Of a stretch of 64,000 nucleotides of DNA, positions 84 through 29,410 are shown one piece after another (within the stretch, counting starts at the first letter, position 1; each line of letters begins with the position of its first letter). The notes beneath the pieces were generated by a model. It ran no database searches, was not told where the DNA came from, and worked only from the letters and a program-made list of their open reading frames with translations. Origin of the DNA: a virus; the IMG/VR virus record IMGVR_UViG_3300044623_000784, positions 1 through 64,000 of that record; one strand, 5' to 3'. The position numbers and the translations under genes were made by a program.

Positions 84-110
84 ATTCCTGAGTATGAATT
101 AAAACTACTC
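84..110 (+). ncRNA. Repeated pseudoknot-like motif, copy 1
   Basis: ATTC-CTGAGTAT-GAAT-TAAAAC-TACTC. Confidence 0.7.
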
Positions 111-153
111 AACACCCCCAACTAATAACCCACAAAAGAAAAGAGATAAACAG

Positions 154-576
154 ATGGCTAGAGCAAAAGCAATAAATGTAAAAATCCCAACAGTTCGTGT
201 AATCGCAGGACTAGAGCAAGCACTTGCTACACTAGAAGCAGACTACGCAACACAATCAGCAAAAGAAGCGCAATACGAAATTGCTAAGAAGGCTTGGCAA
301 AAAGAGGTTATTGACTACGCAGTAGCAAACATCTCAAAAGCAGAAAACTTCCGCACCAACTATCGTAATTGGTCAAACAATCTTAACATTGACTTTGACT
401 TGACAGTATTGGAAAAGGATTTGCCAACAGAGCCTGAAAAGGACTTCGAGGTAATTCACTCCAGCACTTATCGTGAGTCAAAGAAAGAAATCCAAAACGC
501 AATCCGTATTCTGAAAATGACAGATGAGGAAACAGTAAATACCTCAACCTACAACGCAATCGCTCAGTATCTATAA
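154..576 (+). CDS. hypothetical phage protein
   Basis: 140-aa ORF after purine-rich leader. Confidence 0.85.
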   Translation: MARAKAINVKIPTVRVIAGLEQALATLEADYATQSAKEAQYEIAKKAWQKEVIDYAVANISKAENFRTNYRNWSNNLNIDFDLTVLEKDLPTEPEKDFEVIHSSTYRESKKEIQNAIRILKMTDEETVNTSTYNAIAQYL

Positions 577-585
577 TTAGATACA

Positions 586-612
586 ACTCCTGAGTATGAG
601 TCTAAACTGCTC
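586..612 (+). ncRNA. Repeated pseudoknot-like motif, copy 2
   Basis: ACTC-CTGAGTAT-GAGT-CTAAAC-TGCTC. Confidence 0.7.
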
Positions 613-728
613 AACCACGACCACAGAAATGCGTGGCTAAATAAATAGAGTGGAGAATTCGCCAGGCTGATTAGGGCGATCATAGAAATACTATAGAGCC
701 AGTTCACACCAACTGCAAGAAGTGTAAC

Positions 729-754
729 TACCTGAGTATGTATCAAAACTGCTC
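729..754 (+). ncRNA. Repeated pseudoknot-like motif, copy 3
   Basis: TAC-CTGAGTAT-GTA-TCAAAAC-TGCTC. Confidence 0.7.
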
Positions 755-767
755 CCCGCAAGGGCCC

Positions 768-797
768 TTGACAAATGTCAGTGGCACCCAGTACAAT
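768..797 (+). promoter_or_regulatory. sigma70/SigA-type promoter
   Basis: TTGACA-18 nt-TACAAT upstream of ORF 829. Confidence 0.7.
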
Positions 798-828
798 TGA
801 ATTAACCAACTAACAGAAAGAGGCCCCC

Positions 829-1257
829 ATGGACCAAACAGAAACATCAGTAACAGTAATACCAAACACAACACAGGAATTCCTTCAGTCTCAAATTAAA
901 ATCAAGGATGAGCGCATTGCTCAACTTGAGGACCACATTCAAAAAGTAACTCAGCGCTCATATGCAGATTCTGCAGAGCGTAACCGTATTACAGAAGATA
1001 TGCAGACATGGACTCTCTCAGCGCTTGAGAGTGGAACAATTAATGAGTCAGAAGCAGAAGAGATTGCGGAAATCGTTGGATTCGAATTAACGAAAGAATT
1101 CGAATTAGAAGTTACAGTTATGTATTCAGTCACCGTTAATGCTCGTGATGAAGAGTCTGCACAGAATGTAATTCACGATATTGATTTTGATACCGTTCAA
1201 TACGACTCAGATAATATTTCTTGGTTGTCATCCAGTGTTGACAGAATAGATATTTAG
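829..1257 (+). CDS. hypothetical acidic phage protein
   Basis: 142-aa ORF with AGAGG RBS. Confidence 0.85.
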   Translation: MDQTETSVTVIPNTTQEFLQSQIKIKDERIAQLEDHIQKVTQRSYADSAERNRITEDMQTWTLSALESGTINESEAEEIAEIVGFELTKEFELEVTVMYSVTVNARDEESAQNVIHDIDFDTVQYDSDNISWLSSSVDRIDI

Positions 1258-1272
1258 TAGGGGGCTACTAAA

Positions 1273-1303
1273 GGACCTGAGCATGTCTCTACATAAACTG
1301 CTC
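1273..1303 (+). ncRNA. Repeated pseudoknot-like motif, copy 4
   Basis: GGAC-CTGAGCAT-GTCT-CTACATAAAC-TGCTC. Confidence 0.65.
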
Positions 1304-1336
1304 TCTCATTATTCCGTGAAAAATTCCACGTGGGGC

Positions 1337-1356
1337 TTATCCACAGGTTATCCACA
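1337..1356 (+). promoter_or_regulatory. Two tandem perfect DnaA boxes
   Basis: TTATCCACA at 1337-1345 and 1348-1356. Confidence 0.6.
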
Positions 1357-1428
1357 TGATCAAGATCACATTGTGATTTACGATACAGTTACGAAATGCC
1401 CCAATTGTCCCATGCTTACTTATACGAT

Positions 1429-1457
1429 TTGACTTTGTCAGTCCACCCATGTATACT
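1429..1457 (+). promoter_or_regulatory. sigma70/SigA-type promoter
   Basis: TTGACT-17 nt-TATACT. Confidence 0.65.
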
Positions 1458-1488
1458 TAGATTAACAACAACAGAAAAGAGAAAACTC

Positions 1489-2505
1489 ATGGCACATGAC
1501 CTAGAAACACAAAACGGAAAAGCATCATTCGCATCTTTCCGTGAACCTGCTTGGCATGGATTGGGTACAGTCTTTACAGAAGAAAAATCTACATCAGAGA
1601 TGCTGGCTGCTGCTAGTCTTAATGGTTGGAATGTTCGTCTTGAAGATTTGGAAACCCCTTCACATTTAACAAGCGACAAGGCGTACCAATACGTTTTGCG
1701 TACTAACCCAACAGATAATTCTCAGACCGACATTCTTGGTGTCGTTGGTGAGCGTTACCATGTTTTACAGAATGAAGATTTATTTTCATTTGGCGATAAC
1801 ATTCTAGATGGTGGTGGTCGTTGGGAAACGGCTGGCTCAATCAAGGGTGGTCGTGTTGTATTCGGTGCGTTAGCACTAGAGCGAGAAACAGTTCTTGACC
1901 CTAGCGGTGTTGCCGATAAGGTAAAGACTTATTTGCTCATCAACACATCACACGATGGCTCAATCGCTATTCAAGCAAGCATCACGCCAGTTCGTGTTGT
2001 ATGCGCTAACACTCTTAACCTTGCGCTTGGTTCAATCAAGAAAAAGAATGGCATCAAGCAATCATTCAAGATTCGTCACACACAAACAGCAAGCGGTAAG
2101 GTTGCTATTGCTCGTGAAACTCTTGGCATGGCTAATAAGTACATGGACGAATTTGACATCATGGCTAAGGCAATGATTGAGAAAGAAGTCACTGCTCTTG
2201 ATTTCAACAAAATTATTCTTGCTGCTTATCCTAAGCCAGAAACAGATGCTAAGGGTTCACTAAAGAAGTGGGAAAATAAAGTTGATGTCATTAACGACAT
2301 TTACACAGGCGAGTTTAACGGAATGATTGCGGGTAATTCATGGGGTGCTTTCAATGCGCTAACTGAACGCCTTGATTGGTATCGTTCTGCTCGTGGTGGT
2401 TCTAACGAATCCATTCTCGCATCAGCATCAGGATTTGACCCTGCGATTAACGCAGAAAAAAATCGTTTGCTAAAAGTTGTACAAAATGTTATGTCTTTAG
2501 CATAA
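1489..2505 (+). CDS. DUF932/TIGR03299-like phage protein
   Basis: MAH..E start, PAWHGLG, ETAGSIKGGRVVF, SHDGS, TPVRVVCANTL, IRHT; start moved to ATG 1489 after the promoter. Confidence 0.85.
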   Translation: MAHDLETQNGKASFASFREPAWHGLGTVFTEEKSTSEMLAAASLNGWNVRLEDLETPSHLTSDKAYQYVLRTNPTDNSQTDILGVVGERYHVLQNEDLFSFGDNILDGGGRWETAGSIKGGRVVFGALALERETVLDPSGVADKVKTYLLINTSHDGSIAIQASITPVRVVCANTLNLALGSIKKKNGIKQSFKIRHTQTASGKVAIARETLGMANKYMDEFDIMAKAMIEKEVTALDFNKIILAAYPKPETDAKGSLKKWENKVDVINDIYTGEFNGMIAGNSWGAFNALTERLDWYRSARGGSNESILASASGFDPAINAEKNRLLKVVQNVMSLA

Positions 2506-2509
2506 CAAA

Positions 2510-2537
2510 AAATCCTGAGCAAGATTTAAAACTGCTC
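2510..2537 (+). ncRNA. Repeated pseudoknot-like motif, copy 5
   Basis: AAATC-CTGAGCAA-GATTT-AAAAC-TGCTC, 4 nt before tRNA-Asp. Confidence 0.7.
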
Positions 2538-2541
2538 GCAT

Positions 2542-2615
2542 GGAGTGTTAGCATAGTTGGTTAATGCGCTACCCTGTCACGGTAGAGATCACGGGTTCAA
2601 GTCCCGTACACTTCG
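2542..2615 (+). tRNA. tRNA-Asp(GTC)
   Basis: Acceptor GGAGTGT/ACACTTC, anticodon arm CTACC-CTGTCAC-GGTAG, T-loop GGTTCAAGTCC. Confidence 0.92.
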
Positions 2616-2770
2616 CAAAATCCACGTGGGGAACAAATAGTACAAATCGGACATAAAAATGTCAAATAAAAAAATCTTTACGAAGACTATAAAAGATCCC
2701 CCAAAATGTCAAACCAAAAAATCTTTACGATAGAGTTGACATTTCCCCCAAACCATGCGATAATTAATAC

Positions 2771-2935
2771 ATGACCCAAACAATGAGAACTATTGACGAA
2801 TTAGTCAATGAGATGTACATGGACAATGAGCAACATCTCGAATACATGGAAAATATGAACGGTGGGGATTGTGATTGTAACATCCACACTACCTTGAATA
2901 CAATAGTCAAATACTGGTGGGATGAGGAGAACTAA
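2771..2935 (+). CDS. small hypothetical protein (54 aa)
   Basis: Hand-read ORF MTQTMRT...WWDEEN, 6 nt after TTGACA-17-GATAAT; TAATG coupling to next ORF. Confidence 0.65.
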   Translation: MTQTMRTIDELVNEMYMDNEQHLEYMENMNGGDCDCNIHTTLNTIVKYWWDEEN

Positions 2936-3093
2936 TGTTAGGTTATGAGAGAGATGATTTAGATAACATGGTTCTTGCTATTGATTCTGCTTTAACTACC
3001 GTGAATCCTGACGATGACCCTTGGCTACATAGAAACCTTACACAAGCCTCAGACTTCCTATCAGGGCTATGGGCAGAAGGGTACTTTGACTAA
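2935..3093 (+). CDS. small hypothetical protein (52 aa)
   Basis: MLGYERDD...GLWAEGYFD; TAATG coupling on both sides. Confidence 0.7.
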   Translation: MLGYERDDLDNMVLAIDSALTTVNPDDDPWLHRNLTQASDFLSGLWAEGYFD

Positions 3094-3323
3094 TGTGGAG
3101 TAGATATACATTTGTTTGCGACCCTGATGAATGCGATGCCCTGGTTGAGTTTACTGCTAGGGATGACTTTGGCTTTCCCCTGGGAGTTGTGGCAATGAAA
3201 TGCCCTTGTGGTAGGATGTTAAACTATATTAGTTATGAAGAGGCTTACGCTCCGATCATTACAGATGTGAGCAAGGTCACACCCCGTGAAGTTGTAAAAA
3301 TCAACACGAACCCGTATAATTAA
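3093..3323 (+). CDS. small Cys-rich (Zn-ribbon-like) protein
   Basis: CDPDEC...CPCG. Confidence 0.7.
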   Translation: MWSRYTFVCDPDECDALVEFTARDDFGFPLGVVAMKCPCGRMLNYISYEEAYAPIITDVSKVTPREVVKINTNPYN

Positions 3324-3326
3324 TAT

Positions 3327-3482
3327 ATGGACCTAAACACACTTATAGAGTATATAAAGATAAACATCATCTCTCTAGAGCAAGACCTAGAAAACGAGGA
3401 CGGTGCTGATAGCATTGTTCCTTACCTTGAAGGTGCCATTGATGTATCCCGCCATTATTTGGAGGCAGTCAATGGAGAATAA
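3327..3482 (+). CDS. small hypothetical protein (51 aa)
   Basis: MDLNTLIEY...; ATG just after TATAAT. Confidence 0.6.
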   Translation: MDLNTLIEYIKINIISLEQDLENEDGADSIVPYLEGAIDVSRHYLEAVNGE

Positions 3483-3759
3483 CACAACACTAGACCCATA
3501 CTTAATGAAACAAGTAGAAATGGGTATGGACGGAGCAGATATCCTGCATGGTCACCTTAAAACTCTTATGTATGAGGCAGAGCAACAGTTAGACCTTTGT
3601 ATTGAGGCAGAGGAATACTCAGAGGAAGCCATGGACTCTATGGCTCGTACAGAGGCTTCAGGCTATCTTGACGCACTGTCTGAGGTTTATGCCCTAACAT
3701 ATGCTATCGCTTTTGCCAAGGAAGAAGTAAAGAACCGCAAGGAGATTCTTGGTGAATAA
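3472..3759 (+). CDS. hypothetical acidic protein
   Basis: Start reassigned to MENNTT after GGAGG. Confidence 0.75.
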   Translation: MENNTTLDPYLMKQVEMGMDGADILHGHLKTLMYEAEQQLDLCIEAEEYSEEAMDSMARTEASGYLDALSEVYALTYAIAFAKEEVKNRKEILGE

Positions 3760-4204
3760 CGAACGCTTTATTGAAATGGACTTTGATGAGTGGTGTGATA
3801 CATACAAACCAATCATTAACCATATAGACAGTAATGCATCCTTTGACAATGGCTATGGCGGTATTATGTTTGAGACATATGGTGATGAAGTAGAGTTTGT
3901 TAAGTCTCAATCCCCTGACAAAATTTGGATGTATGGTGACGGAGACGACGGCGGTTCATATGTATGGAGCGGCTGGGGATTTGTAAATAGATTAGGATAC
4001 TTCATCACTGAGGTACCTTGCCCACCTGATACAACCATTCAGGTCAGAGTTAGTTATAACTGGTTCTATTGTGAAAACTGCAGCGCTGAATTCGAGGACC
4101 CTGATAATACTATCAGAGATGCCTTCGATGAGCACGATTTGTATAAATGCCCACAATGTGCTACACTTGAAGAAATGACCCTAGTAGGATTGGAAAAGAA
4201 ATGA
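3752..4204 (+). CDS. hypothetical protein with C-terminal Zn ribbon
   Basis: GWGFVNRLGYFITE segment; CENC...CPQC. Confidence 0.8.
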   Translation: MNNERFIEMDFDEWCDTYKPIINHIDSNASFDNGYGGIMFETYGDEVEFVKSQSPDKIWMYGDGDDGGSYVWSGWGFVNRLGYFITEVPCPPDTTIQVRVSYNWFYCENCSAEFEDPDNTIRDAFDEHDLYKCPQCATLEEMTLVGLEKK

Positions 4205-4377
4205 TGACAAATGAAGAAATGCTAGCCTATGTAAAAGAAAGAATAGCAACCCTAACCGAACTCAGAAATGAAATGCATGCCGAAGGCAATCATGCTTCAG
4301 ATGAATACACTGCTGGAGCAATTGACTCCTATGACATTATGCGTATTAAGTTAGAAGGGACCGTTACATTCCTATGA
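4201..4377 (+). CDS. small hypothetical protein (58 aa)
   Basis: ATGA overlaps at both ends. Confidence 0.65.
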   Translation: MMTNEEMLAYVKERIATLTELRNEMHAEGNHASDEYTAGAIDSYDIMRIKLEGTVTFL

Positions 4378-4532
4378 ACGAATACACAGTAGAACTTATT
4401 CATGAACCAAGCGGGGCCCATATGAATTTTGTTATGTTCAGTGATGTCAAGCAGGATGAAGTAGCGCTGGCCAAGGAAATTTGGGCAGACATGTCAGTTG
4501 TTGTATTAGACTACGTTGAGGAGGAAGAGTAA
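4374..4532 (+). CDS. small hypothetical protein (52 aa)
   Basis: MNEYTVEL...; coupled to neighbours. Confidence 0.65.
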   Translation: MNEYTVELIHEPSGAHMNFVMFSDVKQDEVALAKEIWADMSVVVLDYVEEEE

Positions 4533-4897
4533 TGGGAGCACGGATTAACTTTGTATTTAAAGATGTTGAGGATGAGGCCCATGTAGTACTCTATAGTCAC
4601 TGGGGTGAGACAGAATGGCAGCGGGACCTAGCAATGGCGCTGCAGCATTCAAAGCCTAGGTGGAAAGACTATGCCTACTTCACCCGCATGATGATTAGTT
4701 ATTTAATGCAAGACTCTGTTCTTGAAGAAACAGGGTTTGGTATCTATGCTATCACAGGCAGCAACTTTGATTTAGGTGAGACCACGGTAGTCATCGATAT
4801 CGCTAAAGAAACTATCAATCATGTGGGCTCCACTGTCGTAGTTGACTGGAATAAATTTATGGTAGCATACCTACCAGTTTTGGCTGAGCAGATCTAG
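4532..4897 (+). CDS. hypothetical phage protein
   Basis: MGARINF...LYSHWG; GGAGG RBS. Confidence 0.8.
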   Translation: MGARINFVFKDVEDEAHVVLYSHWGETEWQRDLAMALQHSKPRWKDYAYFTRMMISYLMQDSVLEETGFGIYAITGSNFDLGETTVVIDIAKETINHVGSTVVVDWNKFMVAYLPVLAEQI

Positions 4898-4924
4898 GGA
4901 GTGGGTCCTCTAGATTAATAAGGT

Positions 4925-4965
4925 GGGAAGGGTCGGCGTGGGGCTTGCCCTTCCCCCTACTTTTT
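4925..4965 (+). terminator. probable intrinsic terminator
   Basis: GGGAAGGG/CCCTTCCC stem followed by T run. Confidence 0.5.
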
Positions 4966-4990
4966 GGTACAATAGATACAAGGGAGAACT

Positions 4991-5197
4991 ATGCGTATAA
5001 GCAGACGAGTCACAGAGGAAGAAAAGGTTGCCATGAAAATGGGCAACATGGTTTCTGACCTCAGAGTTGATTTGGAATTAGTCGGGGAATACTTAGCAAA
5101 ATCTCAGCCCCATGTAGTGTATAATCGTTTACAGGTAATAGCAGAATCAGCCAAAGAAACTAAGGAAGGTACAAATTATGGCAAAAACAACTTTTGA
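4991..5197 (+). CDS. hypothetical protein
   Basis: 68-aa ORF with GGGAG RBS. Confidence 0.75.
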   Translation: MRISRRVTEEEKVAMKMGNMVSDLRVDLELVGEYLAKSQPHVVYNRLQVIAESAKETKEGTNYGKNNF

Positions 5198-5444
5198 TAA
5201 CAAGGCTTTAATCCTTGGACAGTTATGGATTAATTATAAAATGGAAGATGAGTGGGTTGATTTCGTTGAGTACAACGATTTAGGTTTGCCACTTGCTTTC
5301 GCATTTGCCGAGGGTATTATCAATGAAACTCCATCACTACAACAATACATAAATGAAACATGGGACTTACTACTAGAGGGCATGGAACTTGACGACATTG
5401 GGTTTGGTGACTTTCAAGAACTAGTTGACAAACAAAACGAGTAG
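5178..5444 (+). CDS. hypothetical phage protein
   Basis: 88 aa, YNDLGLPLA segment. Confidence 0.8.
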   Translation: MAKTTFDNKALILGQLWINYKMEDEWVDFVEYNDLGLPLAFAFAEGIINETPSLQQYINETWDLLLEGMELDDIGFGDFQELVDKQNE

Positions 5445-5459
5445 CGTGACCCGAAAGGG

Positions 5460-6257
5460 CACGTGCCATACTTTTATCAAATTGTCAAACCCCAAACCTC
5501 ATATCCAGACATTACGATCCAAACCATAATATCCCCAAACCAGGACATTACGAACCTCCAAAACTTTCCCCCTGCTGAACTTATACCATAGTTTTTAAGG
5601 TTTGTCAAACCATGTTATAATGATATTATGCCACACCACTTTGCAAAGATGTATGAGAACAAGTCCCATAGACATGATTCTCTTTCTGACTCTGCTGTCT
5701 TTAATGAAGCAGTGGGTACTTTAACGGGTATGTTGTATTCTATTGTTACTCTTAGGGCTTTCTTTCCTTTCTTTAGATCCCCTGAAAAGATCACTGATAA
5801 TACTGTTAATCATGCCCCTTATCCTATGCCGTCGGAAAAATCGGGGGAGTCAAAGTATACCCAATTAACCCTATGGTAAATAACAAACCATTATCTCCTG
5901 GTTTCTAAATATTTGATAAAGGTTTGTTAAAAAAAGATTACGATTATCGACAATTTCTCCCTGGTTTTGGGAGATTTTTTATGGGGTTTTAAGGTTTGAA
6001 AGGACTTGACAAACCATTATATCTGTGATATCATCCGCTGCGGGATATGAAGGTTTGAAGGTTTGACAATATGAAGGTTTTGTGATAGGGCCCCTCTCCC
6101 CAAAAAAGATTACGAACGCCTCTTTAAAAGCGCTCCCTACTCCACTATCCTCCACTTCACTCCACTTCTAGAGTGTCTAATAATATAATCAGTAAGATTA
6201 ATCTGTGGATAACTTGTGGATAACTATGATATTTTTGGCGTATCAGCCTGTGGATAA
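5460..6257. repeat. Repeat-rich, mostly non-coding region; candidate replication origin
   Basis: Repeated ATTACGA, many CAAACC/GGTTTG, CTCCACT x3 at 10-nt period (6140-6166), TGTGGATAA x3 (6204, 6215, 6249). Confidence 0.45.
5628..5879 (+). CDS. possible hypothetical protein
   Basis: 83-aa ORF just after TGTTATAAT; no recognisable motif. Confidence 0.45.
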   Translation: MPHHFAKMYENKSHRHDSLSDSAVFNEAVGTLTGMLYSIVTLRAFFPFFRSPEKITDNTVNHAPYPMPSEKSGESKYTQLTLW

Positions 6258-6808: not shown

Positions 6809-6843
6809 ATACTCATTATAGCATTGTCTGTTATAATTAAACC

Positions 6844-7350: not shown

Positions 7351-7368
7351 AACCACGGTAAATAAAGA

Positions 7369-14218: not shown

Positions 14219-14247
14219 AAGTCCTGGGTATGACTTAAAAACTACCC
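14219..14247 (+). ncRNA. Repeated pseudoknot-like motif, copy 6
   Basis: AAGTC-CTGGGTAT-GACTT-AAAAAC-TACCC (compensatory GGGTA/TACCC). Confidence 0.7.
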
Positions 14248-14493
14248 AAATATAGATCTTATAACAGATTCTGGCTTAACTCCGCCAAGCATATTATGAT
14301 ACTCTCCATCAATAAGTGCAATGAATGTTGGAACAGACTGAACTCTATACTCTCTGACTAACTCAGTCTCCGCATCTACGTCAACCTTTGTATATTTTAT
14401 ATCTGGGTTATCGTTAATAAACCTTTCAATGACTGGAGCCATACTCTTGCATGGGTTACACCAATCTGCTGTAAAATGTAAAAGTTCTTTCAT
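14242..14493 (-). CDS. thioredoxin
   Basis: FTADWCNPCK, VDVD, SVPTF. Confidence 0.92.
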   Translation of the reverse strand: MKELLHFTADWCNPCKSMAPVIERFINDNPDIKYTKVDVDAETELVREYRVQSVPTFIALIDGEYHNMLGGVKPESVIRSIFG

Positions 14494-15473: not shown

Positions 15474-16517
15474 CTACTTTGAACTTATTTCTGCTACTCT
15501 TGCCTTTGAAAACTTGAGCATAGCACTTCTGATTGGAGAGTAGCCAAGATCTTCAGCCTTCTTGCCACAGGTATCAAGCATAAAGTTAAAGAACTTTTTA
15601 ACGGAATCATTTTTTGAGTTCTTCTCTTTGTATGCTATACCGTATGTGAATGTTGATATGTTATAGGATAGTTTATTAGGGTTCTTGTAATTAATTTTAA
15701 CTACGCCACTCTTGTCTGGGACAAAGTCTCCAAGGAATACTGACGCTGCACTCACTGTTGGCTGTATAAACCTTCCAGCCTCATTCTCAACAGAGACTGT
15801 CTTTAGTCCTCTTGCATATGATATCTCATTGTATCCAATAGATCCATTTGTAGTTCCTTGTACCATTGCAATTCCATGAGACCCAGAAGCGCTGGTCATA
15901 TAACTCTTAGATATATCTCCAGGGAATGCAGTACCAAAGTTTTTATTCCCTGGTTTGTTCCATATAGTTGGAGCAACTGCATTAAGGTATGAGGTAAAAA
16001 CTTCTGAAGTTCCAGAACCATCAACACGGTATACAACTCTAATCTTTGTTGCTGGTATCTTAGGTAGTTTTCCTGATATAAGGTTTTCTTTTAATATCTG
16101 TGGGTCGTTCCACATTGTTATTTGTCCCGCAAAAACTTTAGCAAGGGTATCTTTACTCATCTTGATAGTAACTTTATATCCATCAAGTTTGTAGATAATT
16201 CCAATTGGCCCTGCTACCAATGGAACATATACAAACTCTTTTGATGGCTTTACTTCTGTACCAGAGTAAGGAACATCTGACATAGCAAAGTCTGTTACTC
16301 CATTTGAAAACATATTCTTTCCAGCACCTGATCCAGATGCTCCATATACAACAGAATCTCCTGTTGATTTCATAAATTCGACCCTGCATCTGTCTATAAA
16401 GTTAGCAGCAAATGTGGATCCAGCACCTTGAAGGTTGTCAGCATGTGAAGGGGTAATAAAAAAAGCATTAGCAAATATGGCTAATGCTACTGGTAAAGCA
16501 ATGAATTTAAATTTCAT
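15474..16517 (-). CDS. pstS: phosphate ABC transporter substrate-binding protein
   Basis: Signal peptide, GAGSTF, GSGAG, DFAMSD, R.DGSGTS; start reassigned to MKFKF. Confidence 0.92.
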   Translation of the reverse strand: MKFKFIALPVALAIFANAFFITPSHADNLQGAGSTFAANFIDRCRVEFMKSTGDSVVYGASGSGAGKNMFSNGVTDFAMSDVPYSGTEVKPSKEFVYVPLVAGPIGIIYKLDGYKVTIKMSKDTLAKVFAGQITMWNDPQILKENLISGKLPKIPATKIRVVYRVDGSGTSEVFTSYLNAVAPTIWNKPGNKNFGTAFPGDISKSYMTSASGSHGIAMVQGTTNGSIGYNEISYARGLKTVSVENEAGRFIQPTVSAASVFLGDFVPDKSGVVKINYKNPNKLSYNISTFTYGIAYKEKNSKNDSVKKFFNFMLDTCGKKAEDLGYSPIRSAMLKFSKARVAEISSK

Positions 16518-16592: not shown

Positions 16593-16618
16593 GAGCAGTT
16601 TATGGACTTGCTCAGGTC
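16593..16618 (-). ncRNA. Repeated pseudoknot-like motif, copy 7
   Basis: GAC-CTGAGCAA-GTC-CATAAAC-TGCTC on - strand. Confidence 0.7.
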
Positions 16619-16620
16619 TC

Positions 16621-16695
16621 CCAGGGTGCGACCCTGGCTTGTCCGTACTCAGCAATAAGGTTGCTAAAAGCAACTGCATGTATCATGACGGAATA
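16621..16695 (-). ncRNA. candidate structured small RNA
   Basis: TCCGT/ACGGA, GTTGCT-TTT-AGCAAC and CCAGGGT-CGC-ACCCTGG stems; TATAAT at 16707-16702. Confidence 0.45.
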
Positions 16696-16707: not shown

Positions 16708-17124
16708 CTATTTAATTTTAATAGATTTTGGCTTTTTGTCTTCAGGAACAATGCGTACAACATTTACATGTAGCATACCATCCTTTAGTTCTGCAGAAGT
16801 TACTTCCATGTACTCTCCCAGTGCAAAAGATCTTACAAACTTTCTTCCTGCGATTCCCTTGTGAACTACCTCTGCATCTGTCACTTCAACAATCTCACCC
16901 TTGATGATCAGTGTTCCATTATCTACTGAAACATCAATATCGTCTTTTGAAAAACCAGCGACAGCCAGTGAAATCTTGTATGTATCTTCATCTAGTTTGA
17001 TTAGATCATACGGAGGGTATGACTGTGAGTTTGTTTTATGTGCTGTATTTAGGCGACTCAACTCTCTGTTGAAGCCAATAAAAAAAGGATCATTGAATAG
17101 ATCCATAGCGTACTTTGTTACCAT
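16708..17124 (-). CDS. small heat-shock protein (Hsp20/IbpA family)
   Basis: YPPYDL, LAVAGFS, HKGIAGRKF, A.LKDGML. Confidence 0.95.
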   Translation of the reverse strand: MVTKYAMDLFNDPFFIGFNRELSRLNTAHKTNSQSYPPYDLIKLDEDTYKISLAVAGFSKDDIDVSVDNGTLIIKGEIVEVTDAEVVHKGIAGRKFVRSFALGEYMEVTSAELKDGMLHVNVVRIVPEDKKPKSIKIK

Positions 17125-22565: not shown

Positions 22566-22566
22566 C

Positions 22567-23088: not shown

Positions 23089-23144
23089 GGCACATTTGAA
23101 GCATACTAAATTCTAACATATATGACAGAGTTTGTCAAGAACTA

Positions 23145-23883: not shown

Positions 23884-23907
23884 AAAGACTCCCAGGTATT
23901 TAGTATA

Positions 23908-24237: not shown

Positions 24238-24239
24238 GG

Positions 24240-24647
24240 TTATTTCCCAGACTTCTTTCTGGCCTTTGCTAGTTGATCAAAATCTTTAACCTTAGTGTCA
24301 CCTAGATATCCCCAGGCATAGCCATCATTGATCATCATGTCGTTAAGAGATACGGTATCTCCATTAATATATACCCAGCCTAAAATGCGACCATACTTCT
24401 CAGATGAATCCATCTTCTCAGTCTTAATAATAACAGACTTGGCATCTTTTAGAGCCTTCTTTAGGTACTCTTTAGACTCAAGACCAAGAGTCTTTTCTTT
24501 AAGGTCTTTCGTACGAGACTCAGGGGTATCAATACCAGCCAATCTCACACGGGATTGAAACAAAATATCAAACCCTAAATCAATAAGAACGTCAATGGTA
24601 TCTCCATCTACTACGTTCTCTACTTTTCTTACATAGTATTCATACAT
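24240..24647 (-). CDS. thermonuclease (SNase-like)
   Basis: VVDGDTID, VRLAGIDTPE, KYGRILG. Confidence 0.92.
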   Translation of the reverse strand: MYEYYVRKVENVVDGDTIDVLIDLGFDILFQSRVRLAGIDTPESRTKDLKEKTLGLESKEYLKKALKDAKSVIIKTEKMDSSEKYGRILGWVYINGDTVSLNDMMINDGYAWGYLGDTKVKDFDQLAKARKKSGK

Positions 24648-25446: not shown

Positions 25447-25448
25447 GT

Positions 25449-25652
25449 TTATTTTCTCCCCCATTGTATATAGTTCCACCCACGCTCATGTGCGTAGTAG
25501 ATAAATACTTTAACTACCGTTTCCCAAAACGCAATCGTTACTGAGAGCGAAGCGTTCTTTGTTATAACATAAGCAACCGCAACAGAGGAGAGTGTTCCCC
25601 ATATGCGATAACTAAGTGCCTTAGCAAACGATCTTGCTCTGGTTACTGTCAT
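25449..25652 (-). CDS. DUF2061 membrane protein
   Basis: RSFAKALSYR...YYAHERGW. Confidence 0.85.
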   Translation of the reverse strand: MTVTRARSFAKALSYRIWGTLSSVAVAYVITKNASLSVTIAFWETVVKVFIYYAHERGWNYIQWGRK

Positions 25653-25855
25653 TCCTTGCCCCACTTGACAGCATTCCAAATTCTTTCATGATAATAGTAT
25701 GCCACAAAATTAACCCCATTGGTTATTAGTGTAGCAATAGTAGCCAGACTAATATCTTCGCTCAAAGCATAAAGAGTTACAAACCCTGAAACCATTGCGA
25801 CAACTCTCCATGTTAAAGACTTAACAAGTGATCTACTTTTCTTTACGCTCATCAT
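25649..25855 (-). CDS. DUF2061 membrane protein
   Basis: RSLVKSLTWR...YYYHERIW. Confidence 0.85.
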   Translation of the reverse strand: MMSVKKSRSLVKSLTWRVVAMVSGFVTLYALSEDISLATIATLITNGVNFVAYYYHERIWNAVKWGKE

Positions 25856-25926
25856 TATCCTTAAACATTGACGCTATAATTCTTTCATCTGCAGCATTGA
25901 TTGCTTCCCCAGATTTTTCTATCTGT

Positions 25927-26685
25927 CTAAAGGCCCAACTGCTTGCGTTTTTCAGTAGCCGAAATAGCATGAATGTCTGCCCCCAAATCTACTTGTTCAA
26001 TCTTGTATCCAACATCTCTACCATATACAATGTTGGTAATGTTTGGTAGTCTTAATACTAATGCACCATCCATAAATTCATCCTTGGCAATATATTCTTT
26101 TACCTGATCGAACTTAAGTGGATCTTTCTCGCTTGTATTGTATGTATTACGTACTCCCAGCAAAACCTGCTCTGTTCTCTTCCCTGCCTCTTTGTAAAGA
26201 GCGTGATGTCCTTCATGCCATGGCTGATATCTGCCCAGCATAAGGGTTGTAGGGGCTGTCCAGTCGTGTAACTGGCAAGCAGCAATGATAAGGTCAGCCT
26301 CTTCTTCTACTGTCATCCCACAGGGGATTCTGACATCGCATGACTCTGGGTCTTCCCACATCTTGTTTGTGTCTTCAAATCTTCCAGACTCAATTCTGTC
26401 TACCCAAATTAAAATATCTGGCTTGCCAAATGCTGCACGAGTCAAGTCGGTAGGGCACACAAAGTCAACTATCACTGGAGCAACTCCCTGCTTAGCAATA
26501 AGTCTTGCCATGTCCCCCATACGTCTTGCCTGTTCAATTCTATCTTCAGGGCTAAAACCTAAGTCTGAGTTTACTGTTGCACGGACCTCATCTGCATTAA
26601 GGTGAATGGCGTTAATTCTTTCTTTGAGTGCCTTGGCCAACTCTGTCTTACCAGCACCTGGCAGACCAATAATCTGAATAATCAT
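25927..26685 (-). CDS. adenylylsulfate kinase-like domain fused to HxGH nucleotidyltransferase domain
   Basis: GLPGAGKT, LNADEVR, DLGFSPEDR; GRYQPWHEGH, ISAT. Confidence 0.8.
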   Translation of the reverse strand: MIIQIIGLPGAGKTELAKALKERINAIHLNADEVRATVNSDLGFSPEDRIEQARRMGDMARLIAKQGVAPVIVDFVCPTDLTRAAFGKPDILIWVDRIESGRFEDTNKMWEDPESCDVRIPCGMTVEEEADLIIAACQLHDWTAPTTLMLGRYQPWHEGHHALYKEAGKRTEQVLLGVRNTYNTSEKDPLKFDQVKEYIAKDEFMDGALVLRLPNITNIVYGRDVGYKIEQVDLGADIHAISATEKRKQLGL

Positions 26686-27245
26686 TCTTCACCTATCTCT
26701 GTGTTTGGCATAATGTCAATTAACAAATGCACTCTGTCAATTTTGCTACTGTTTTCTACTGAGTGTACTCTTGAGTTGTTAATCTCCCAGCATTCTCCTT
26801 CTGACATGTTAATTTTTTCTGATCCAACAGTAAAAAAAGTCTGGTCTGATGTAATAATTGGTATGTGATGCCTTCTTGAGGAAAGCAAATACTCACCACT
26901 ATCAGAATGTGCAGAAATATTATGTCCTGCTTTTAATTTTATAAAAAGAACATTGCTCCTAATTCCATTATGCTTTAGTTCCAAGTCTTTAATAATTGGA
27001 TTAATCATGTCAAGTAGTGTTTTGTCATTGCTTTTTTCTTCAACAACAAGAGGTTCTCCTTGTTTCCAAGCAAGATTTGTTTTGTATACAAAGTAAGAAT
27101 TAGTGTCTTTGTGTGCTTGGAAAATATCTTGTCTTGATGTATCAATAAACCATTCATCAGAAAAATTATTAATATATTTTTGGATTGATGATATATCATA
27201 GTTTCCAAAAAAATTAAAGTTAAAGTTTTCTGACAACTTGTTCAT
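26682..27245 (-). CDS. aspartyl/asparaginyl beta-hydroxylase-like oxygenase
   Basis: HSD, RHHIPIIT, WEINN...HSVEN...RVHLLID. Confidence 0.85.
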   Translation of the reverse strand: MNKLSENFNFNFFGNYDISSIQKYINNFSDEWFIDTSRQDIFQAHKDTNSYFVYKTNLAWKQGEPLVVEEKSNDKTLLDMINPIIKDLELKHNGIRSNVLFIKLKAGHNISAHSDSGEYLLSSRRHHIPIITSDQTFFTVGSEKINMSEGECWEINNSRVHSVENSSKIDRVHLLIDIMPNTEIGEE

Positions 27246-27246
27246 T

Positions 27247-27522
27247 TTAACTAACTAATTTTTCTCGTTCGTCAACAATGCTAAGCGCAAAAGACATCAT
27301 CTTCTTATATCCTTCAGAACTATCCATAATCTTATTATAGTGATGACCACAAAACATTAGGTCTCCAGAGATGCCAGTTACCTGAACTAGAGCCTCCGCA
27401 CTACAAGAGTCACACCTATCCAATGGAGATAGTCTCCACTGCTTTATTTCTACTGCTTCATCAATCATTGTCTTCATAGTATACTGCCTATTTCTTTCTA
27501 TTATCAGTGGAATAAAATCCAC
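27247..27522 (-). CDS. small Zn-binding hypothetical protein
   Basis: DRCDSC...FCGHH...DER. Confidence 0.75.
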   Translation of the reverse strand: MDFIPLIIERNRQYTMKTMIDEAVEIKQWRLSPLDRCDSCSAEALVQVTGISGDLMFCGHHYNKIMDSSEGYKKMMSFALSIVDEREKLVS

Positions 27523-27673
27523 TACCGTTGAAAACTGCTCCTACATTAGAGTATACACGAACTAAGGTATGATTGCAAGTCTCACAGACATATCCAGGAT
27601 CGTTATCTTTTATTGAACGCTCTTTAGTGTAGCGTTTTGCACATGGCATGCAATCATATTCGTACAGTGCCAT
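27488..27673 (-). CDS. FmdB-family zinc-ribbon protein
   Basis: YEYDCMPC...CETC...FNGSGFYSTD. Confidence 0.88.
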   Translation of the reverse strand: MALYEYDCMPCAKRYTKERSIKDNDPGYVCETCNHTLVRVYSNVGAVFNGSGFYSTDNRKK

Positions 27674-27783
27674 GCGTTACTTCTTCTTTTTTGCTTTTAC
27701 TGTCCAGACTGGTGCATTGAGATTGTCTCCACCCCATTCATATCCAAGTGTTTTAACAACAAACCTAATAAATTTAATACGCA

Positions 27784-28002
27784 TTATTTTACCTTGTGTC
27801 CAAACTTTGCCCAGACTCTCTCATGTAGGTAATAGAATGTCATTTCTAATGCCATGTATGAAAGTGCATATAGTCCAACATACTCCCATTCAGCCTCACC
27901 ATAAATTATATGGCTTGCTGCAAATAAAATTCCAGAAACAAAAGTAAAATGTACAAATGGCCAACTGATTGTTTTTAGTACTGATTTCTTTTTAGATTCC
28001 AT
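27784..28002 (-). CDS. DUF2061 membrane protein
   Basis: MESKKKSVLKTISW...YYLHERVW; start reassigned. Confidence 0.8.
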   Translation of the reverse strand: MESKKKSVLKTISWPFVHFTFVSGILFAASHIIYGEAEWEYVGLYALSYMALEMTFYYLHERVWAKFGHKVK

Positions 28003-28640
28003 TATAGTGCTACCTGAGCCTTTCCTCCGCCACCAGATGACTTCTTTGCAGCAGGCTTTGCAGCCTTCTTTGGTGCTGGTGTTGATGTTGTTGCAGATGC
28101 TGTTACCTTGTTTAGTAGTGGAGCATTTTCTTCTCCAGTGTATACTGGACGACCCCAACCAACTACGGCGTTAACTAACTTCTTCTTATTGTTCTTCACA
28201 TATGCACGAGTCTTCTCAACACACATTCCGCCGTTGCGCTGATCTCCCTTTGCAGTTCCTGAAGTGTTTCCTTCAATAACTTGAATTGTTCCATCGCCGT
28301 TGTTCTTAATGCAAAGACCAACATGTGAAATACGATTTACGCCATCTTCTGGGAAATCAAAATAGATCCAGTCTCCTGGTGTTGGATCATCATTACGAGC
28401 ATCTGACCAACGCTCAGCCTTCTTAAACCAATCTGCTGCTGCTACTGTTGATGCAGACTTAGGGAATGACTTTACTCCCGCAGTAAATGCTGTCCAAGAA
28501 ACGAATGACTGGCACCATGGTTGGAAATTAACCTTGATCCATGCTCCGTACTTTGTTTCGTTATCTTTAGGGCCTTCAATTGTGCCCAATTCTTTTTTTG
28601 CAACCTCTATAATTGCTTCTACTGATCCTTTTGCAGCCAT
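28002..28640 (-). CDS. CHAP-domain endolysin
   Basis: PWCQSFVSW, PGD, SHVG, IEGNTS. Confidence 0.88.
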   Translation of the reverse strand: MAAKGSVEAIIEVAKKELGTIEGPKDNETKYGAWIKVNFQPWCQSFVSWTAFTAGVKSFPKSASTVAAADWFKKAERWSDARNDDPTPGDWIYFDFPEDGVNRISHVGLCIKNNGDGTIQVIEGNTSGTAKGDQRNGGMCVEKTRAYVKNNKKKLVNAVVGWGRPVYTGEENAPLLNKVTASATTSTPAPKKAAKPAAKKSSGGGGKAQVAL

Positions 28641-28696
28641 GATTACCTCCTTATAGGTATCTTTATCTTATTATATCACAATAGGCGTTGCCCTGC

Positions 28697-29284
28697 CTAT
28701 AGGGTTTCCCACTTAAAGTGTTTTCTATATTTTTCTAAATCAACAATATTTGGATCCACCCACCAATCTTCATGGTACTCTCTTACTACCAATGAATAAC
28801 CTAATGAATCCAAAATCTCTCTTTGAGCATCTCTCATTGCAATATTTCTCCAGTACATGTTTGCATCATGCTCAAATGTAATAACCGTAAACCTGTATTT
28901 ATTTAGCGGTACTGCAATCAATCCATGCAAAGATAGATAATGATTTCCGTCTGGCCTTCCGTTAAGTTTGTATCCAGAATCAATATCAACCTGCAAGTAA
29001 TCTATCTGATTAGGAAAATTATTTTCTTCAAAGTATTTAATGTAATCAAACTTTGTGGCATCTCCAAGGATGCAAGGGTTCTTTCTGTTTTCTGTTATTT
29101 CTTTATGTAGTTCTGGAACTATCTCAAAGGATACGCCATTCCAGTCAAACTCTGTTTCTAGTCTATATGTATTGCTACCATTTTTAGAGTGATATGCTCC
29201 TAGTTCTACATAGTATCCCCCAGTTTTTTGATCCATGAGGTCTATAACAAACTCTTCTTGTCTGCTTGTTGGTTGAAATTGCAT
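28697..29284 (-). CDS. FkbM-like methyltransferase
   Basis: YVELGA..GSNT, IDYLQVDID, ITFEHD, EDWWV. Confidence 0.7.
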   Translation of the reverse strand: MQFQPTSRQEEFVIDLMDQKTGGYYVELGAYHSKNGSNTYRLETEFDWNGVSFEIVPELHKEITENRKNPCILGDATKFDYIKYFEENNFPNQIDYLQVDIDSGYKLNGRPDGNHYLSLHGLIAVPLNKYRFTVITFEHDANMYWRNIAMRDAQREILDSLGYSLVVREYHEDWWVDPNIVDLEKYRKHFKWETL

Positions 29285-29308
29285 TGTGTTCCTTTCGGTA
29301 GTTTTCCG

Positions 29309-29381
29309 CTGCCCCACCTGGCCTCGATCCAGGGACATCCGAATTAACAGTTCGGCACTCTACCATCTGAGTTATAGGGCA
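29309..29381 (-). tRNA. tRNA-Asn(GTT)
   Basis: TGCCCTA/TGGGGCA acceptor, CCGAA-CTGTTAA-TTCGG; atypical T-loop (GGATCGAGGCC). Confidence 0.8.
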
Positions 29382-29385
29382 TAGA

Positions 29386-29410
29386 AGGCAGTTTTAGTCA
29401 TGCCCAGGAC
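29386..29410 (-). ncRNA. Repeated pseudoknot-like motif, copy 8
   Basis: GTC-CTGGGCAT-GAC-TAAAAC-TGCCT, 4 nt before tRNA-Asn. Confidence 0.7.

Follow-up and report, generated by a model that had tools for sequence, protein, structure and literature searches.

The first 64,000 nucleotides of IMG/VR virus record IMGVR_UViG_3300044623_000784 (hereafter, the window) raise the question of what a small RNA structure, repeated at gene ends, does in a phage genome. The initial annotation reported eight pseudoknots here, and we found all eight in the window with the sequences and strands it gave. The motif is an H-type pseudoknot of 26–31 nt. Its first stem (S1) has 3–6 bp and is closed by C-G, loop L1 is CU or rarely CC, a single junction base (A or U) separates the stems, the second stem (S2) consists of 5 bp pairing GRGYA with URCYC, and loop L3 ends in AAAC. 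The copies in the window, with the tRNA genes lying behind two of them, are:

84–110, + strand: pseudoknot copy 1; S1 84–87/96–99, loop 88–95 (CTGAGTAT), L3 100–105 (TAAAAC), 3' strand of S2 106–110 (TACTC)
586–612, + strand: pseudoknot copy 2; S1 starts 9 nt past the stop of the ORF 154–576
729–754, + strand: pseudoknot copy 3; S1 of 3 bp
1273–1303, + strand: pseudoknot copy 4; long L3 (CTACATAAAC) and one G-U pair in S1
2510–2537, + strand: pseudoknot copy 5; S1 of 5 bp
2542–2616, + strand: tRNA-Asp (GTC), 4 nt past the end of copy 5
14219–14247, + strand: pseudoknot copy 6; loop CTGGGTAT pairs with TACCC
16618–16593, - strand: pseudoknot copy 7; 89 nt past the stop of the ORF 16708–17124 (-)
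29410–29386, - strand: pseudoknot copy 8; loop CTGGGCAT pairs with TGCCT, with a terminal G-U
29308–29381, - strand: tRNA-Asn (GTT), 4 nt past the end of copy 8

As originally proposed, all copies (8/8) lie in the sense of the adjoining genes or tRNAs, and five follow a stop codon at 4–15 nt. Besides copy 2, S1 starts 15 nt past the upstream stop in copy 1 (which ends 43 nt ahead of an ATG at 154), 15 nt past the stop of the ORF 829–1257 in copy 4, 4 nt past that of the DUF932 gene (1489–2505) in copy 5, and 6 nt past that of the ORF 29417–30295 (-) in copy 8. Promoter-like sites follow copies 3 and 4: behind copy 3 come a small CCC-GCAA-GGG hairpin, a sigma-70-like site at 768–797 (11/12 matches) and then a gene at 829, and downstream of copy 4 are two exact DnaA-box-like words and a promoter-like site at 1429–1457. 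Copy 6 closes a + strand block, 92 nt past tRNA-Arg, and shares 6 nt with the end of the convergent - strand ORF 14242–14493. A GC-rich hairpin of 7 bp (16638–16622) stands ahead of copy 7. The suggestion that some copies close candidate non-coding RNAs is weaker. The non-coding stretch of 116 nt downstream of copy 2 (613–728) is read as partly a remnant, because a paralogous cassette at the genome tail, 79% identical, carries a 50-aa ORF at the matching spot; copy 7 sits 73 nt ahead of the ATG of pstS at 16516.

The window contains 22 instances of the loop word CTGRGYAW by itself, of which only 8 are accompanied by S1, AAAC and a complementary 3' end. Scanning the whole 118,084-bp genome for the structure returned 12 true copies and one chance match lacking AAAC, and a reversed-pattern control scan returned 0 matches. 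A looser scan that admitted other loop sizes gave 37 matches, compared with 12–26 in 10 shuffles; as 11 of the 37 were true copies, there is no second class above chance.

The same knot recurs beyond this genome. Among the matches listed, it is present in IMG/VR phage contigs and in prophage-like bacterial contigs; it reaches up to 12 copies in one genome and is used by many unrelated phages. The upstream genes, again among the matches listed, fall into 91 unrelated clusters, and no protein family within 5 kb is shared by more than 18 of the 165 loci. At gathering thresholds, Rfam 15 matched four tRNAs and nothing else in the 64-kb window, and with E up to 10 the region 60–2560, which holds five copies, gave only three chance matches, all off the motif. 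Riboswitch and ribozyme families of Rfam (preQ1, hammerhead, pistol and twister) gave no match with E up to 10. The statement that the knot belongs to no named family thus holds for Rfam, but it passed over a close published relative, the coremin or xrRNA-C knot of RNA viruses, to which we return below.

The element is an RNA-level one, as the initial annotation argued, with covariation in both stems and tolerance of G-U pairs. In a pairing test on 124 sequences (1115 pair cells, 500 shuffles), 97.2% of the cells were paired versus 79.5% in shuffles, with 0/500 shuffles reaching the observed value; the covariation score was 0.481 versus 0.150, and at most 0.114 when the partners were slid. Pairing reached 94.5% in S1 and 99.4% in S2. 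Among the matches listed, S1 pairs 2 and 3 were paired in 150 of 150 cases and used all four Watson-Crick types, and S2 contained the wobble U-G 37 times versus the mismatch C-A 4 times, with G-U once and A-C never. Since G-U is commoner than C-A, the folded strand is the sense RNA. Each stem alone is weak (means of -2.1 and -3.4 kcal/mol).

The unpaired bases are also strongly conserved. When positions were left free in the scans, the 135 S1-paired matches among those listed retained L1 CU (CCT) in 132 and AAAC in 132, and the closing pair of S1 was C-G in 132, G-C in 2 and U-A in 1. All loops are 8 nt long, reading C-(U/C)-G-R-G-Y-A-W, and the spacer varies in length only 5' of AAAC, with 5 nt in 123 of 148 copies and 6–13 nt in 25 (both among the matches listed). 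AAAC probably forms a triplex with stem 1, in its minor groove.

The closest known system is coremin. According to the parts of the coremin literature drawn on here, coremin (xrRNA-C) and the Watson-Crick type xrRNA-WCC occur in beny-, cucumo-, hypo- and other eukaryotic RNA viruses; coremin stalls Xrn1 and ribosomes, scanning ones included, without any protein and induces -1 frameshifting; its closing pair is C-G, with U-A tolerated and G-C abolishing function (Dilweg et al.); and loops of 7 and 8 nt are functional without a defined consensus (PMC6546385, PMC10520033, PMC10321173). Set against those parts, the two knots share a short hairpin (3–4 bp in coremin) with a loop-closing C-G, and the stem seen most often in phages, GUC/GAC or GAC/GUC, is similar to that of coremin. 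Both spacers end in AAAC followed by U-R-C, the AAA and C being essential in coremin and near-invariant in the phage knot, and both tolerate insertions only at the spacer 5' end. Their loops likewise begin with C and end in A-D, and one natural coremin heptaloop differs from the phage loop by a single U. Each is a pseudoknot of a loop with its spacer, and coremin acts protein-free on enzymes that thread RNA.

The same sources also mark differences. With a pyrimidine in second position, the 8-nt phage loop departs from both coremin consensus forms, YGAD (4 nt) and YGNNAD (6 nt), L1 has 2 nt rather than 1, and S2 has five canonical pairs, whereas it is non-canonical in xrRNA-C and has three Watson-Crick pairs in xrRNA-WCC. 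The second hairpin (hp2) directly downstream, which coremin needs for Xrn1 resistance, is missing: among the matches listed, a small hairpin starts within 4 nt downstream in only 29 of 286, and the 28 nt downstream have a mean of -1.94 kcal/mol versus -2.45 in controls and -1.57 when shuffled (285 copies). The phage knot lies behind stops and before tRNAs, while coremin lies in the 3' UTR. Whereas coremin belongs to eukaryotic RNA viruses, the phage knot is carried by DNA phages and by prophages of bacteria, and bacteria lack Xrn1.

Placement across the family follows the upstream gene. Among the matches listed, S1 begins at a median of 11 nt past the upstream stop (5–9 nt in 48/135), and the downstream start is a median of 55 nt away. 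Of the 200 copies classified among those matches, 184 have the upstream gene in sense; 158 are co-directional with a downstream gene, 26 convergent and 12 divergent, the 26:12 split coming from crude ORF maps and having modest significance only. A Shine-Dalgarno-like word often stands about 10 nt behind knots co-directional with the downstream gene, and many copies occupy tight operon spacers, as in a Lacticaseibacillus prophage where one separates the minor head gene from the scaffold gene. Among the matches listed, a tRNA lies 4–13 nt downstream in 13 of 153 copies (to which copy 8 is to be added) and within 300 nt upstream in only one. A run of at least four Ts within 10 nt 3' of the knot was found in 50/218 viral and 15/68 bacterial-genome copies among the matches listed, compared with 61/926 motif-less spacers of the same loci (23% versus 6.6%), and in 0/8 window copies. 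By class, again among the matches listed, the T-run was seen in 8/26 convergent, 37/158 co-directional and 1/12 divergent copies, and its rate is independent of the distance to the next start. In assembled contigs of 90–99% relatives from four lake metatranscriptome runs, no contig showed consistent ends, and some contigs bridge the motif, e.g., 4–255 and 4–189 across copy 1.

We tentatively favour reading the knot as a cis-acting RNA that marks gene ends, a protein-independent roadblock capping the 3' end of the upstream message; we regard this as plausible, if somewhat short of probable. Needing no protein of its own, the knot would be a mechanical obstacle placed as near the stop codon as a terminating ribosome permits, and the upstream message would come to have this structure at its 3' end. 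That end may be formed variously: by U-tract termination directly behind S2, in about a quarter of copies, by an RNase P cut at a tRNA 4–13 nt downstream, or by some other endonucleolytic cut. At copy 5, an RNase P cut at the 5' end of tRNA-Asp would leave the upstream RNA with the pseudoknot and a further 4 nt at its 3' end. The knot would then halt 3'-to-5' exonucleases, and long phage transcripts would therefore be cut into stable cistron-sized pieces. Of all this, the fold and its conservation, strand and placement are observed, while the triplex, the nuclease resistance and the side that is protected are inferred. We counted in favour of this reading the coupling to the upstream gene, the T-runs, the downstream tRNAs, the lack of a partner protein and the coremin precedent. 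Of the functions first proposed, we retain that of a block at gene boundaries by which RNA ends are defined or protected; self-cleavage and a ligand aptamer found no support.

Against a 3' cap, the proven block of coremin meets enzymes moving 5' to 3', on the opposite side, and the 158 of 200 copies co-directional with a downstream gene would be explained just as well if the knot protected the RNA behind it. Moreover, a plain GC hairpin also protects a 3' end, so capping alone does not explain the strong sequence conservation. A bolder claim, possible but in our view doubtful, is that the phage element represents a genuine exoribonuclease-resistant RNA that needs no protein, the first such case among DNA phages and bacteria. 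Sharing one fold with coremin, it would serve as a general and possibly two-sided roadblock as well as the hairpin of a pseudoknot-type terminator. If true, this knot would decide where cistrons begin and end on the long transcripts of very many phages, spread over many bacterial phyla.

The roadblock might instead face upstream. As a true bacterial or phage xrRNA, the knot would stop RNase J (or a ribosome or Rho arriving from upstream) and so shield or insulate the downstream cistron or tRNA. The constraint pattern is common to coremin, whose block, in the parts of the literature considered, runs 5' to 3'; flaviviral xrRNA stops bacterial RNase J1 in vitro too; and among the matches listed the knot stands directly 5' of a tRNA far more often than behind one (13/153 versus a single copy) and the downstream gene is in sense in 158/200. 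We nevertheless consider this rather unlikely, since the 26 convergent copies have nothing downstream to protect and the T-run enrichment peaks in precisely that class, promoter-like sites separate copies 3 and 4 from the next genes, coupling to the upstream stop is tighter than to the downstream start, and coremin's second hairpin is missing. The T-runs bear also on termination, in which the pseudoknot would replace the hairpin of an intrinsic terminator; this might suit hosts like the actinobacteria, which are said to terminate without needing U-tracts. Knots do occupy terminator positions, and positions 1–3000 of the window contain promoter-like sites but no + strand terminator-like site. 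We judge termination unlikely all the same: 77% of copies, including all eight in the window, have no T-run behind S2, many lie inside tight operon spacers, and terminators do not need invariant loop bases. In addition, no promoter would fit between knot and tRNA in the 14 copies with a tRNA 4–13 nt downstream, so transcription must read through them, as it must through the two window copies that lie 4 nt from one. The narrower candidate of an intrinsic terminator, a stable GC-rich hairpin with a U-tract, was rejected because the stems alone are weak and a T-run follows none of the 8 window copies and, family-wide, 65/286 of the matches listed.

Binding or catalysis would account for the strongly conserved unpaired bases, with the knot serving as the site of a conserved host or phage protein, as an aptamer or riboswitch for a small ligand, or as a self-cleaving ribozyme. 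The preQ1-I aptamer is likewise a very small H-type pseudoknot with an A-rich tail that ends in C and then pairs with the hairpin loop, and the adjoining tRNA-Asp and tRNA-Asn are queuosine tRNAs. We think this very unlikely, as up to 12 copies per genome lie behind unrelated genes with no co-occurring protein family, and riboswitch and ribozyme families of Rfam gave no match even at the relaxed threshold. L1, S2 and the single junction base use up the whole loop, so there is little room for a pocket; preQ1-I differs in having a ligand pocket, which the phage knot lacks because its L2 is one base, and in its place in the 5' leaders of biosynthesis genes rather than in multiple copies at gene ends. 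To our knowledge, natural ribozyme classes are all well above 26–31 nt. Least of all do we credit mimicry of a tRNA acceptor arm, with RNase P cutting between the U of L1 and the first G of S2, or a CCA-adding enzyme maintaining the 3' end. RNase P does cut the pseudoknotted tRNA-like ends of plant viruses, tRNA genes occur in 36 of the sources scanned, and the knot has an invariant U before G, a first S2 pair of G-C and, among the matches listed, A at +1 in 72% of copies and ACC or ACCA in 26/148 and 13/148 (about 1% and 0.4% expected from base composition). However, the coaxial helix would have only 9–11 bp without a T-loop mimic, ACC follows under a fifth of copies, the conservation of AAAC, the closing C-G and the C of L1 stays unexplained, and an RNase P cut there would destroy the knot.

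Recoding was also considered and rejected. The spacing fits a stimulator of -1 frameshifting or readthrough, which calls for a slippery site or leaky stop 5–9 nt upstream and a frame that stays open through the knot. However, stops in more than one frame precede copies 1 and 2, the spacing is not kept in frame, and several copies come after non-coding RNA or ahead of a tRNA. The minimal -1 frameshift pseudoknots known from luteo- and poleroviruses (BWYV type) are H-type knots of about 28 nt whose A-rich L3 lies in a minor-groove triplex with stem 1, and the phage knot matches them in size, in its 2-nt L1, in its single junction base and in an A-rich L3 of 6–7 nt. It differs in lying behind stop codons, in its longer S2 and in sequence, and it does not recode, because stops occur in other frames upstream.

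Two further systems resemble the phage knot in layout. The 3' ends of MALAT1 (a eukaryotic nuclear lncRNA) and MEN-beta consist of a triple helix, in MALAT1 a U-A-U triplex with an A-rich tail, followed by a tRNA-like RNA that RNase P cuts. Although the phage fold is different and most copies have no downstream tRNA, both arrangements place a compact triplex-type structure a few nucleotides ahead of a tRNA or tRNA-like element, where an RNase P cut would create a protected upstream 3' end. In T7, RNase III sites punctuate the polycistronic transcripts. Hammerheads occur in prophage operons, as described in the part of the source considered (PMC3088659). Both of these define processed ends, whereas the phage knot has neither a long RNase III duplex nor a ribozyme-family match; on that partial account, all three are repeated structured RNAs between cistrons, present in several copies per genome.

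All eight copies of the compact H-type pseudoknot described in the initial annotation were present in the window, with the sequences and strands reported there (copies 1–8, starting at 84, 586, 729, 1273, 2510, and 14219 on the + strand and at 16618 and 29410 on the - strand). Read 5' to 3', each copy consists of the 5' strand of stem 1 (S1; 3–5 nt, with C at its end), an 8-nt loop (CTGRGYAW), the 3' strand of S1, beginning with G, a linker with a terminal AAAC, and five bases complementary to loop positions 3–7, which form stem 2 (S2). The source record is 118,084 bp long and rated complete in IMG/VR, the window being its first 64 kb. A structural scan detected 12 knot copies across this genome, and a reversed-pattern control yielded 0 matches. 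The copies outside the window are:

113183-113209, + strand, knot copy
116756-116782, + strand, knot copy
117256-117282, + strand, knot copy
117544-117569, + strand, knot copy

Five other large phage records carried 5, 4, 2, 2, and 1 copies, and 12 is thus a high count. The final 1.4 kb of the record (116673-118084) is a 79%-identical paralogue of window positions 1-1277; the knot cassette is therefore present twice, in the order gene, knot, gene, knot, short stretch, knot, promoter-like site, gene, knot. The record terminates within a knot. The tail cassette has a 50-aa ORF (117314-117466), the head equivalent of which (613-728) is a non-coding remnant only, and about 70 nt on the 5' side of copy 3 are kept in both cassettes. 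Further loop-size classes in this genome were dropped, as none occurred above chance.

A pattern scan found the knot widely, in at least 120 IMG/VR stretches. Apart from the loop, the closing pair and AAAC, the pattern prescribed just an R/Y-degenerate 3' strand; S1 past the closing pair was left unconstrained. Among the IMG/VR matches listed, S1 nonetheless had at least 3 bp in all 147 instances, and S2 formed all five pairs in 143 of the 147. Among the 150 unique instances listed, S1 pairs 2 and 3 were always paired, with all four Watson-Crick types represented; the first degenerate S2 position was A-U in 136, G-C in 13, G-U in 1, and A-C in 0, and the second was C-G in 91, U-G in 37, U-A in 18, and C-A in 4. 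Wobbles on the sense strand were thus common and mismatches that would be wobbles on the opposite strand rare, which indicates that the structure forms in sense-strand RNA. An alignment of 124 sequences (six of the eight window copies and 118 fixed-length copies from IMG/VR scan loci) had 97.2% of 1115 cells paired, compared with 79.5% after shuffling, a level reached by 0 of 500 shuffles. Its covariation score was 0.481, against 0.150 for shuffled and at most 0.114 for slid controls. Because the aligned sequences are related and were collected by pattern, the fixed columns are uninformative, the result is carried by the variable ones, and the shuffle count should not be read as a probability. 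The proposal of an RNA-level, covarying element that tolerates G-U pairs was thus borne out, both by the pairing excess and by the excess of sense-strand wobbles.

We freed the seemingly invariant single-stranded bases one by one in fresh scans. CCT preceded GAGCA in 132 of 135 matches when those three bases were free, and AAAC preceded the 3' strand in 132 of 135 S1-bearing matches when those four were free; five matches lacking S1 in the latter scan had other words in place of AAAC and look like chance. With the loop-closing pair free, it was C-G in 132, G-C in 2, and U-A in 1 (n = 135). The distance from the closing G to AAAC was 5 nt in 123 of 148 copies, with any added bases always 5' of AAAC. 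A variant with CC, in place of the usual CU, as the loop bases before S2 gave 91 unique instances in IMG/VR loci L319-L432, of which 84 had an S1 of at least 3 bp; in this variant the C-A combination in S2 was frequent (13/91) and U-A absent. Several of these C-A cases sit on Lacticaseibacillus-phage-like contigs. Each stem is unstable alone (mean -2.1 kcal/mol for S1 and -3.4 kcal/mol for S2), which would fit a structure that depends on the knot and on tertiary contacts.

The knot is tied to the stop codon of the gene before it. Among the matches listed, 135 of 153 unique instances had a sense ORF (50 aa or longer) ending no more than 400 nt upstream; on crude longest-ORF maps, the distance from stop to S1 had a median of 11 nt in these 135 (48 at 5–9, 18 at 10–14, and 8 at 0–4 nt), and the next sense start lay a median of 55 nt from the knot. 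When the ribosomal A site is on the stop codon, a structure starting 5–9 nt later is just outside the mRNA entry channel, and the knot is thus placed about as near the stop as possible without being unwound. Using the same crude maps for 237 instances, and leaving out 35 inside a called ORF and 2 without a neighbour, we classified 200 copies, of which 158 were co-directional with both neighbours, 26 convergent, with the knot closing a unit, 12 divergent, and 4 antisense to both. The surroundings of tRNAs were asymmetric: among the 153 matches listed, 13 copies had a same-strand tRNA 4–13 nt downstream (11 Asp, 1 Arg, 1 Ser), and a single copy had one within 300 nt upstream. Copy 8, missed by the pattern, is a further case, with tRNA-Asn 4 nt downstream.

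The upstream genes were diverse, falling into 91 BLAST clusters among 133 instances of the matches listed, the largest encoding DUF932 (18 instances, among them window 1489-2505) and a 140-aa protein (10 instances). The gene at 1489-2505 is a DUF932 (PF06067) gene, whose homologues are usually followed by a knot and then tRNA-Asp. Carriers may preferentially be early or anti-defence genes. Within 5 kb of the knot, no protein family was shared by more than 18 of the 165 loci among the matches listed, and the idea of a conserved partner gene was dropped. Within the window, copy 6, downstream of tRNA-Arg, is the last element of a + strand block and borders on an ORF that converges with it. Copy 7 has, 3 nt upstream, a GC-rich hairpin of 7 bp (CCAGGGT-CGC-ACCCTGG, window 16622-16638, - strand), and downstream of both is a phage pstS with a signal peptide (ATG at 16516).

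The sequence directly behind the knot is also biased. Its first base was A in 72% of copies, the next nine were G-poor (3–15%, against 20% overall), and ACC followed directly in 26 of 148 copies. A T-run of at least 4 within 10 nt occurred behind 50 of 218 viral and 15 of 68 bacterial-genome copies, compared with 61 of 926 equivalent places in knot-less spacers of the same loci, a control resting on the crude ORF maps. By neighbour class on those maps, the rate was 8/26 for convergent, 37/158 for co-directional, and 1/12 for divergent copies, and it was independent of the distance to the next start; the T-run thus acts like a terminator U-tract and not like a ribosome-binding feature. None of the eight window copies has such a T-run, and no + strand terminator-like site was found in window 1-3000. 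Two promoter-like sites lie between a knot and the next gene:

768-797, sigma-70-like site, 11/12 match, behind copy 3
1429-1457, sigma-70-like site, 10/12 match, behind copy 4

In addition, the exact DnaA-box word TTATCCACA has five matches in two tight clusters, where we estimate about 0.5 expected in the window:

1337-1356, + strand, two DnaA boxes, just behind knot copy 4
6204-6257, - strand, three DnaA boxes

A similar pair lies behind the knot at 113183 in the genome tail. These clusters could mark an origin of replication, titrate DnaA, or belong to promoters under DnaA control. The word CACGTGGGG, in this or a closely similar form, occurs at window 1327-1335 and 2623-2631 and at genome 113216 and 116148, beside DnaA-box-like words and 20–90 nt past a knot or tRNA-Asp; with one mismatch allowed, its 4 occurrences in the window are not above chance (3.3 expected).

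We tentatively propose that the knot caps gene ends, as a structured 3' terminus of the upstream message predicted to block 3' exonucleases. The 3' end would be made by U-tract termination, by RNase P at an adjacent tRNA, or by another cut, and the resulting terminal knot would then stop 3' exonucleases. MALAT1/mascRNA has such a layout, with an RNase P-made end at an adjacent tRNA-like element. A gene-end cap would explain why the knot follows the stop codon so closely, why convergent copies outnumber divergent ones, why T-runs and, for copies 3 and 4, promoter-like sites come after it, and why its surroundings are asymmetric with respect to tRNAs. The main competing explanation, which we regard as rather unlikely, is a true 5'-to-3' roadblock that would shield whichever cistron or tRNA follows. 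Such a block agrees with the co-directional majority and with the copies before tRNAs, and blocking in that direction is demonstrated for coremin, a knot of eukaryotic RNA viruses, and for a flaviviral xrRNA that stops bacterial RNase J1; the convergent and U-tract cases, however, do not fit it.

That the knot is itself a dedicated terminator seems improbable, being contradicted by the read-through into tRNAs that must occur. We consider binding of a protein or ligand, or ribozyme activity, very improbable, and a mimic of the tRNA acceptor, serving RNase P or the CCA enzyme, scarcely likely at all. Several other candidates were dropped: a DNA-level protein site or hairpin promoter, since G-T far exceeds A-C on the sense strand; a CRISPR-repeat mimic or type III antitoxin, since there is no tandem arrangement of copies and pairing with the loop accounts for the conserved 3' strand; and a boxA/nut site, since U stands behind UGCUC in only 13% of copies.

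The closest likeness we found is to coremin (xrRNA-C). The Dilweg/Olsthoorn papers PMC6546385, PMC10520033, and PMC10321173 describe it as a 20-nt motif in which a hairpin of 3–4 bp, with C-G as its closing pair and a loop fitting YGAD or YGNNAD, is followed by a spacer that is conserved; larger loops, including a natural 7-nt one, are still functional. In these papers, three A's and the next C of the spacer are unchangeable, its 5' end accepts insertions, the closing pair tolerates U-A and not G-C, and a second hairpin directly downstream is required. Without protein, coremin stalls Xrn1 and scanning ribosomes and promotes -1 frameshifting, and a selected 'Watson-Crick' type has a canonical 3-bp stem 2 (same papers). 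Compared with these descriptions, the phage knot has the same constraints on closing pair, AAAC, and place of insertion, and its loop is one U apart from the natural 7-nt loop. In contrast, its loop consensus is neither YGAD nor YGNNAD, its S2 has 5 bp with 2 nt before it in the loop, its carriers are DNA phages, and the required second hairpin is missing: the 28 nt downstream were no more structured than controls, and a small hairpin started within 4 nt behind only 29 of 286 copies. The phage knot is therefore not coremin by the published definition. The two very likely share a physical principle, and we regard the phage knot as akin to the coremin-type roadblock knots, with a host domain and a genomic position that are new for them.

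Applied to a prokaryote collection with one genome per species, the same pattern matched at least 119 stretches, where we estimate about 1,400 chance matches. Among the matches listed, 70 of 122 passed a structural test, 58 of them with 5-nt spacing, and 52 failed. By record title, the passing carriers among these matches were Saccharibacteria and other CPR, Desulfobacterales, Planctomycetes, Chloroflexi, cyanobacteria, Lacticaseibacillus, Eggerthellaceae, Alistipes, and others, and titles among the matches listed span Actinomycetota, Bacillota, Cyanobacteriota, Saccharibacteria, and Planctomycetota as hosts. The prokaryote loci inspected had phage-like surroundings; in Lacticaseibacillus, the knot separates the gene of a minor head protein from a scaffold gene, and in Calothrix three knots surround an ArdA-like anti-restriction gene. 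To ask whether the motif avoids hosts lacking RNase J, we compared the classes of a Pseudomonas locus (0 of 401 sampled genomes) and a Lacticaseibacillus locus (3 of 401, the centre genome counted), numbers too small to tell. One CC-variant copy lies on a contig labelled GVMAG, as for a giant-virus MAG (L328), which may be of that kind or a misbinned phage. By megablast against GenBank phages, neither window 1-6000 nor scan locus L174 had a match, and locus L172 matched one Lacticaseibacillus phage record (89.8%) in which every gene is annotated as hypothetical.

The initial annotation had recognised no named family, and indeed no Rfam 15 family matched the knot: at gathering thresholds only four tRNAs were found in the 64-kb window, and at E up to 10 the region 60-2560, with five copies, gave just three chance matches elsewhere. 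Among the papers listed as containing short strings of the motif (25 of 752), there were, judged by title, primers and unrelated matches only, and the papers listed on pseudoknots, phage and intergenic RNA, novel motifs, and xrRNA, RNase J and bacteriophage, judged by abstract, do not describe the phage motif. The knot may be an unnamed entry among the 8,495 candidate structured RNAs from IMG/VR in the catalogue of PMC10690425. If our reading is true, this 27-nt knot, found by two different scans in at least about 120 stretches each, would be one of the most compact structured RNA elements in phages and one of the most widely distributed. Its sequence would let transcript and cistron boundaries be read from the genomes of uncultured phages. 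Exonuclease-resistant RNA, described in eukaryotic RNA viruses, would then reach into the bacterial world as well, and one would have to ask whether the two kinds converged or share an origin. The knot would also offer a large natural alignment for determining the unsolved coremin fold, and a compact, portable part for stabilising or insulating mRNA in synthetic operons.

Finally, 24 sequencing runs, 22 of them recorded as RNA, share words with the region (word shares 0.07–0.19). Four lake or freshwater metatranscriptome runs compared with window 1-3000 all had assembled contigs of relatives, mostly 90–99% alike, and some span copy 1; being assembled, these contigs have no readable ends, strand, or level. 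RNA libraries thus contain the region itself or relatives of it, with DNA carry-over possible. At the place of copy 5 (window 2513 onward), the RNA-library contig of a relative from one run (X4) reads CTAAGCAA in the loop and TGCTT in the 3' strand, a compensatory change from G-C to A-U in the first S2 pair, which is elsewhere invariant.
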